9,120 nt of DNA from Escherichia coli (lineage in GTDB: Bacteria; Pseudomonadota; Gammaproteobacteria; Enterobacterales; Enterobacteriaceae), in NCBI RefSeq assembly GCF_003334335.1, contig NZ_QOWQ01000067.1; one strand, given 5' to 3'. The notes under the pieces are model-generated. The model searched no databases and was not told where the DNA came from. It saw nothing but the letters and a program-made list of their open reading frames with translations. Below, in pieces: positions 3,292 through 3,704 of this stretch. A program made the position numbers and the translations under genes. Numbering within the stretch: the stretch's first letter is position 1; each line of letters starts with the position of its first letter.

Positions 3292-3350
3292 GCTGTTGGA
3301 ACAGGAGGTATGGGGCATGTTTGCGTATTTTTATGGAAAGAAATAACCCA

Positions 3351-3704
3351 ATGACGGCGTTACTCTCCAACTGGGTTGACGCGTGCTGCCTGTTAATGGC
3401 TCCGCTGAATGATGCCCTATACCGTTATGTGATGAACACCCGCCTGGGAACCATCCACGGCACGTCGGTCGGCGAACTGCTGGCGTGGATCAAAGAAGAT
3501 GAAAACCCTCGCAAAGGCGAGATGGTGCTGATTATTGAAGGCCATAAAGCCCAGGATGACGAACTGCCCGCCGATGCGCTGCGTACGCTGGCGCTGTTGT
3601 AGGCTGAGCTGCCGTTGAAGCAAGCGGCGGCGTTGGCGGCAGAAATCCACGGAGTGAAGAAGAATGCGTTGTATAAGTATGCGCTGGAACAGCAGGGGGA
3701 ATAA
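3351..3704 (+). pseudogene. rsmI: 3' remnant of 16S rRNA 2'-O-ribose methyltransferase RsmI gene; 5' two-thirds absent, internal TAG
   Basis: Translation from ~3438 ([50 protein letters not shown]) then, in frame past TAG 3600-3602, [33 protein letters not shown] ending at TAA 3702-3704. This matches my recollection of the E. coli RsmI C-terminus. No N-terminal methylase-domain sequence is found upstream in any frame. The 5' boundary of homology (3351-3440) is uncertain. Confidence 0.55.

Follow-up and report, generated by a model that had tools for sequence, protein, structure and literature searches.

A nine-codon reading frame with a perfect SD between a Mokosh operon and an rsmI remnant in Escherichia coli is very probably a product of insertion-sequence debris

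We report that MFAYFYGKK, a mini-ORF preceded by a complete AGGAGG in a 9,120-nt stretch of E. coli DNA (contig NZ_QOWQ01000067.1; hereafter the window, meaning the whole of the DNA analyzed), is in all likelihood a fortuitous frame in a recombination scar made of insertion sequence (IS) debris, neither a gene nor a regulatory element; its make-up suggests that it is without function. The result is mainly a negative one, as a textbook-looking SD, ATG and short ORF can derive wholly from internal codons of a decayed transposase. The analysis also corrects the local map, placing the start of the rsmI remnant at 3444 and identifying the upstream genes as Mokosh type I, and it shows that in this island lineage the Mokosh operon no longer has its native stop codon and terminator. 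Resolving the junction opens no new question. The features on which the argument rests are collected in Table 1.

Table 1. Features at and around the junction, in window coordinates
Feature	Position	Strand	Remarks
IS100 (IS21-family) end, terminal 72 nt, interrupting mkoA	1-72		100% identical to thousands of copies
mkoA, 3' part (Mokosh type I kinase/SF1 helicase)	71-1858	+	PADLOC MkoA PDLC03921
mkoB (Mokosh type I PLD-nuclease partner)	1855-3291	+	PADLOC MkoB PDLC03923; stop TGA 3289-3291
IS4-family transposase gene fragment, internal, in frame	3284-3321	+	36/38 nt; 13/13 aa; holds the SD and the mini-ORF start
AGGAGG ("perfect SD")	3303-3308	+	transposase codons gaA CAG GAG Gta (Glu-Gln-Glu-Val)
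Mini-ORF MFAYFYGKK*	3317-3346	+	ATG is the transposase Met351 codon; codons 2-9 are scrambled/filler sequence
Filler, 35 nt	3322-3356		flanked by the unambiguous IS4 match and by the IS66 match; carries most of the mini-ORF
IS66-family tnpC fragment, internal (~aa 214-241 of 512)	3357-3443	+	in frame with ATG 3351; 88-98% nt identity
rsmI 3' remnant (RsmI residues ~202-287)	3444-3704	+	internal TAG 3600-3602; end TAA 3702-3704

A re-reading of the window confirmed exactly the coordinates that the first-pass annotation had given for AGGAGG, the ATG at 3317, the stop and a second ATG at 3351. The spacer between AGGAGG and ATG 3317 is 8 nt by direct reading, the codons run ATG TTT GCG TAT TTT TAT GGA AAG AAA TAA with the stop at 3344-3346, and four nucleotides (CCCA) separate this stop from ATG 3351. 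That annotation had offered three explanations: a coupled leader peptide, the outward-reading end of an inserted element driving the truncated rsmI, or chance. Only chance holds, in view of the provenance of the segments, the lack of conservation among homologues and the lack of any statistical excess.

The segment that holds both the SD and the start codon is a relic of an IS4-family transposase gene. This stretch of the window (AAGGTTGAGCTGTTGGAACAGGAGGTATGGGGCATGTT) matches a gene found on many E. coli plasmids and chromosomes (E = 3e-6 to 5e-6). On pO55 the 1341-nt transposase gene is matched 1017 nt from its start with the codon register kept, and by blastx the identical residues are aa 339-351 of the 446-aa protein, the first of them, an R, being a coincidental match whose codon differs from the mkoB tail. 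The reference transposase scores 259 bits against the IS4-family model NF033592 (cut-off 115); the relic consists of 13 codons, from which the DDE domain is absent. ATG 3317 shares a single frame with the fragment, so that the start codon of the mini-ORF is Met351 of the transposase, and AGGAGG is spelled by the codons of Gln-Glu-Val in the motif LLEQEVWGM.

IS4-family relatives conserve the protein motif LRS(K/R)K.EL..QE.WG.LLAYNL.RRE, but not its nucleotide spelling. A 96%-identical Salmonella copy reads CAG AAG G where the window has AGGAGG; relatives at 62%, 50%, 42% and 38% identity carry CAGGAGTTA, CAAGAGCTG or CAGGAATTA at the SD site and Leu or Val in place of Met351; and distant relatives have CAG GAG TTA or CAA GAG CTG instead of the SD codons. 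Because the protein motif is kept while AGGAGG and the Met are not, the SD and ATG are a by-product of codon choice in one subfamily. We also considered whether the pair might be a conserved internal start of the transposase, comparable to Inh of Tn5, and rejected this on the same variation of AGGAGG and Met across the 96%, 62%, 50%, 42% and 38% relatives.

The filler in which most of the mini-ORF lies gave no local alignment above shuffles when compared with IS4 and IS66 elements, with the sequence downstream of mkoB at four loci, with 17 kb of upstream island or with the rest of the window. At its 3' edge, positions 3345-3360 (AACCCAATGACGGCGT) align with the transposase stretch located 3' of the 38-nt match (AACCTGAT-ACGGCGT) at p ~0.04 (2000 shuffles), and GCG TAT (Ala-Tyr) of the mini-ORF parallels GCT TAC (Ala-Tyr) of the IS4 motif. 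The chances seem about even that the IS4 relic reaches 3360, for a length of ~77 nt, with an insertion of ~16 nt.

On its other side, the mini-ORF had been placed immediately upstream of the rsmI remnant. It is in fact set apart from it by the tnpC fragment at 3357-3443, and homology to RsmI starts at 3444 only. The fragment resembles many IS66 tnpC genes, including those of ISEc23, ISEc43 and ISEc47 (88-98% nt identity over 87-104 nt), and blastx matches it to a distant TnpC at 18/34 aa (E = 5e-10). In two other strains IS66 sequence is fused to the same rsmI remnant at the identical join point: most of an element in ST70, and a 117-nt piece in TUM13066. Many megablast matches at 90-95% identity, considered as resident rsmI, proved to be IS66 copies. 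In all, the gap between the mkoB stop and the rsmI remnant amounts to 152 nt of IS debris.

The proposal that ATG 3351 opens the rsmI frame was right in so far as the frame reaches rsmI-derived codons, but it begins in filler and tnpC: two filler codons and 29 tnpC codons precede RsmI residues 202-253 and the TAG at 3600-3602. RsmI homology begins at codon 32 of this frame and covers positions 202-253 of the 287-position NCBIfam model NF011570, the first ~200 residues of RsmI being absent. The description of this copy of the gene for RsmI, the 16S rRNA C1402 2'-O-methyltransferase, as a remnant was borne out: with only these positions matched before the TAG, it scores 79.9 bits where the cut-off for a full-length RsmI is 502, and PGAP labels it '16S rRNA methyltransferase, internal stop, missing N-terminus'. 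Judged by its composition, ATG 3351 opens a chimeric dead frame and not rsmI. The same frame extends upstream without a stop as far as a TTG at 3288, which overlaps the mkoB stop (GTTGA); the resulting 104-codon chimeric ORF (3288-3602) covers the IS4 relic, the filler, the IS66 relic and the rsmI remnant, and is likely to prompt spurious gene calls.

Megablast detects the rsmI remnant in only 542 complete E. coli genomes out of 5,426; in the other genomes the resident rsmI is not matched. Since the resident gene escapes the search, the remnant is a diverged and presumably foreign copy, carried together with a block of 'enterotoxin', MalY, malX, aldolase and agaR genes. Just past its stop, at 3691-3751 on the minus strand, we observed a weak match to the Rfam family naRNA4 (22.1 bits, E = 0.2; the gathering score is 59.5), which may be a REP-like palindromic element.

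Upstream of the junction lie the remains of a Mokosh type I system. Millman et al. (2022, bioRxiv 10.1101/2022.05.11.491447) describe Mokosh type I as a pair of genes, one encoding an STK and a COG1112 helicase and the other a PLD nuclease. The NCTC86 alleles fit the corresponding models: full-length MkoA (1652 aa) matches PDLC03921 over 1-1648 (E = 0, 2204 bits), and MkoB (478 aa) matches PDLC03923 with E = 1.9e-151. By this two-gene context the NCTC86 alleles belong to Mokosh type I; those of the window are disrupted versions. Only the last ~600 of the 1652 mkoA codons are present in the window, which follows NCTC86 from about position 78 on, SNPs aside. Positions 1-70 have no similarity to mkoA of NCTC86, and in strain 120899 the same 72 nt directly adjoin istA of IS100. 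In mkoB a SNP at 2871 turns TGG into TGA (Trp to stop, 2869-2871), as compared with both NCTC86 and the contig SFGN01000089.1 described below, and splits the 478-aa gene into ORFs of 338 aa and 112 aa. Reading these two lesions together, IS100 in mkoA and the nonsense codon in mkoB, the Mokosh system of the window's strain is by all appearances inactivated twice.

The 3' end of mkoB marks where the native locus stops. Plasmid-borne homologues from Klebsiella, Citrobacter, Enterobacter and Chimaeribacter share 80-92% nt identity with the window, and their alignment stops at ~3285. They end in ...SAM(V/A)*, with a TAG at the equivalent of 3280-3282, and a G+C-rich hairpin follows this stop (for example AAAAAGGGCAATTAATTGCCCTTTT). 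The window has AAG in place of the TAG, reads on through three additional codons (Lys-Lys-Gly), terminates at a TGA within the IS4 relic and lacks the native terminator hairpin.

The mini-ORF was not found after mkoB at four diverged loci, on Klebsiella, Citrobacter and Chimaeribacter plasmids and in E. coli ET650. At the ET650 locus a hairpin (CCACCTCCATAGGAGGTGG, positions 2830-2850) follows mkoB and contains an AGGAGG 9 nt before an ATG; this SD-like motif is probably one arm of the terminator stem. We also scanned 100,044 species, with one genome per species, for the peptide WGMFAYFYG in all synonymous codons, and a single contig matched. This contig, SFGN01000089.1 ('MAG: Lachnospiraceae bacterium W0P5.016'), is 99.7% identical between its positions 3986-7961 and window positions 71-4046 over 3,976 nt, including mkoAB and the junction; judged by its sequence, it is almost certainly mis-binned E. 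coli DNA and not part of a Lachnospiraceae genome. Conservation, to which the first-pass annotation had pointed as the check on the mini-ORF, is thus not seen: the mini-ORF is missing from the four diverged Mokosh loci, and the peptide from all the species genomes bar that one E. coli-like contig.

Within E. coli, the window belongs to an island at serW/clpA, which in NCTC86 starts with a tyrosine integrase beside clpA. Annotation of NCTC86 gives, in order, an 'AAA domain-containing protein' (1652 aa), a 'hypothetical protein' (478 aa), a small unnamed pseudogene fragment and a '16S rRNA methyltransferase' pseudogene interrupted by a stop, followed by 'enterotoxin', MalY/PatB, malX, aldolase fragments and agaR. 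From 8426 onward, in the region of the aldolase fragments, the window departs from NCTC86, presumably through an indel or another variant of the island. Over positions 2900-3800 many complete E. coli chromosomes match the window at 100% identity. The mkoB-IS4-IS66-rsmI junction recurs in about 300 E. coli genomes, which are 99.7-100% identical over 3000-3356; since they are nearly identical, selection on the mini-ORF within the lineage cannot be judged from them. Some 240 further E. coli genomes, such as Nissle 1917, TUM13066 and ST70, possess the rsmI remnant but lack the mkoAB/IS4 junction.

The arrangement of SD and ATG is also statistically ordinary. The window has two instances of AGGAGG-N(4-10)-ATG where dinucleotide shuffles predict 0.40, and at least two occurrences were seen in 10 of 200 shuffles; AGGAGG alone occurs four times against 3.16 expected. 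The arrangement is no more than chance provides.

Taken together, these findings point to the following course of events. A Mokosh type I operon would have been joined, in an island beside clpA/serW, to a block consisting of the rsmI 3' remnant and sugar-utilization genes, with the join passing through the debris of two insertion sequences. The join would have removed the native stop-proximal sequence of mkoB along with the terminator hairpin, and left in their place a 38-nt (possibly ~77-nt) IS4 piece, an 87-nt IS66 tnpC piece and the rsmI remnant. The frame of the mini-ORF leaves the Met codon of the transposase, enters scrambled sequence and meets a TAA after eight more codons.

A frame of such origin may still be translated. 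Loss of the terminator could let transcription of mkoAB read through the junction, where the IS4-derived SD would yield a 9-aa product, functionless or emerging as a proto-gene. We regard such incidental translation as unlikely, if conceivable; it is compatible with, and not opposed to, the explanation as a fortuitous ORF. The terminator hairpin that directly follows the stop at the plasmid mkoB loci is missing from the window, a search of 2800-3900 returned no terminator-like site on the plus strand, and the SD is both strong and unpaired in the predicted MFE structure. Given a full 6-mer, an ideal 8-nt spacing and this predicted accessibility, the site could well recruit initiating ribosomes, provided that the region is transcribed. 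Against this reading, the operon of the window's strain is broken by IS100 in mkoA and by the mkoB nonsense codon, and the 9-aa product is unconserved and shows no sign of function. The more far-reaching version, that ribosomes engage the IS4-derived AGGAGG-N8-ATG behind the terminator-less Mokosh operon and make a de novo 9-aa micropeptide, or an 83-aa TnpC-RsmI chimera by reinitiation at 3351, is in our estimation very unlikely; if true, the ribosome-engaged site would be a proto-gene that arose out of IS debris and is present in ~300 sequenced E. coli strains.

We give almost no credence to a coupled leader peptide, whose translation would release ribosomes just 4 nt before ATG 3351 and thereby control or enable the downstream frame. 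The spacing of the TAA and ATG 3351 does fit termination-reinitiation, and ATG 3351 has no strong SD of its own. However, the tnpC-RsmI 202-253 chimera that it opens ends at an internal TAG, and as the downstream frame is a chimeric pseudogene there is nothing functional for a leader peptide to regulate. Moreover, the peptide is conserved at none of the diverged loci, and no attenuator-like structure is apparent: the predicted fold of RNA 3280-3370 is no more stable than those of shuffled sequences (MFE -15.6 kcal/mol; shuffle mean -18.4; z = +1.05), and Rfam at a permissive threshold returned only noise (E = 0.2-0.76, far under the gathering scores) and no leader family. The leader-peptide option of the first-pass annotation falls on the absence of the peptide from diverged loci, the pseudogene downstream and this fold.

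IS ends are known to create hybrid promoters. The region is made of IS-derived DNA, but an outward-reading IS end, with a promoter or translation signal at its terminus that drives the truncated rsmI, is extremely improbable, as both pieces are internal coding sequence (aa 339-351 of 446 and ~214-241 of 512) with no termini or inverted repeats, and sigma-70-like sites number 0 in 2800-3900 against 1.3 expected from shuffles.

The preferred reading, a fortuitous frame in IS debris, can be set beside three known systems. The two genes upstream of the mini-ORF match the MkoA and MkoB models of Mokosh type I almost end to end; elsewhere Mokosh type I is a two-gene module of which the mini-ORF forms no part in other hosts, and the copy in the window is inactivated. 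With leader peptides and uORFs the mini-ORF shares its short length, its strong SD and an end a few nucleotides before the next ATG, but here there are no conservation and no predicted alternative RNA structures, and the downstream frame is a dead chimera. The closest likeness is to the IS remnants and recombination scars of islands, in which short in-frame pieces of transposase genes likewise stand back to back at the junction of modules; other strains keep other lengths of IS66 beside the same rsmI remnant, and the sole oddity of the scar described here lies in its surviving IS4 codons, which by coincidence read AGGAGG-N8-ATG.
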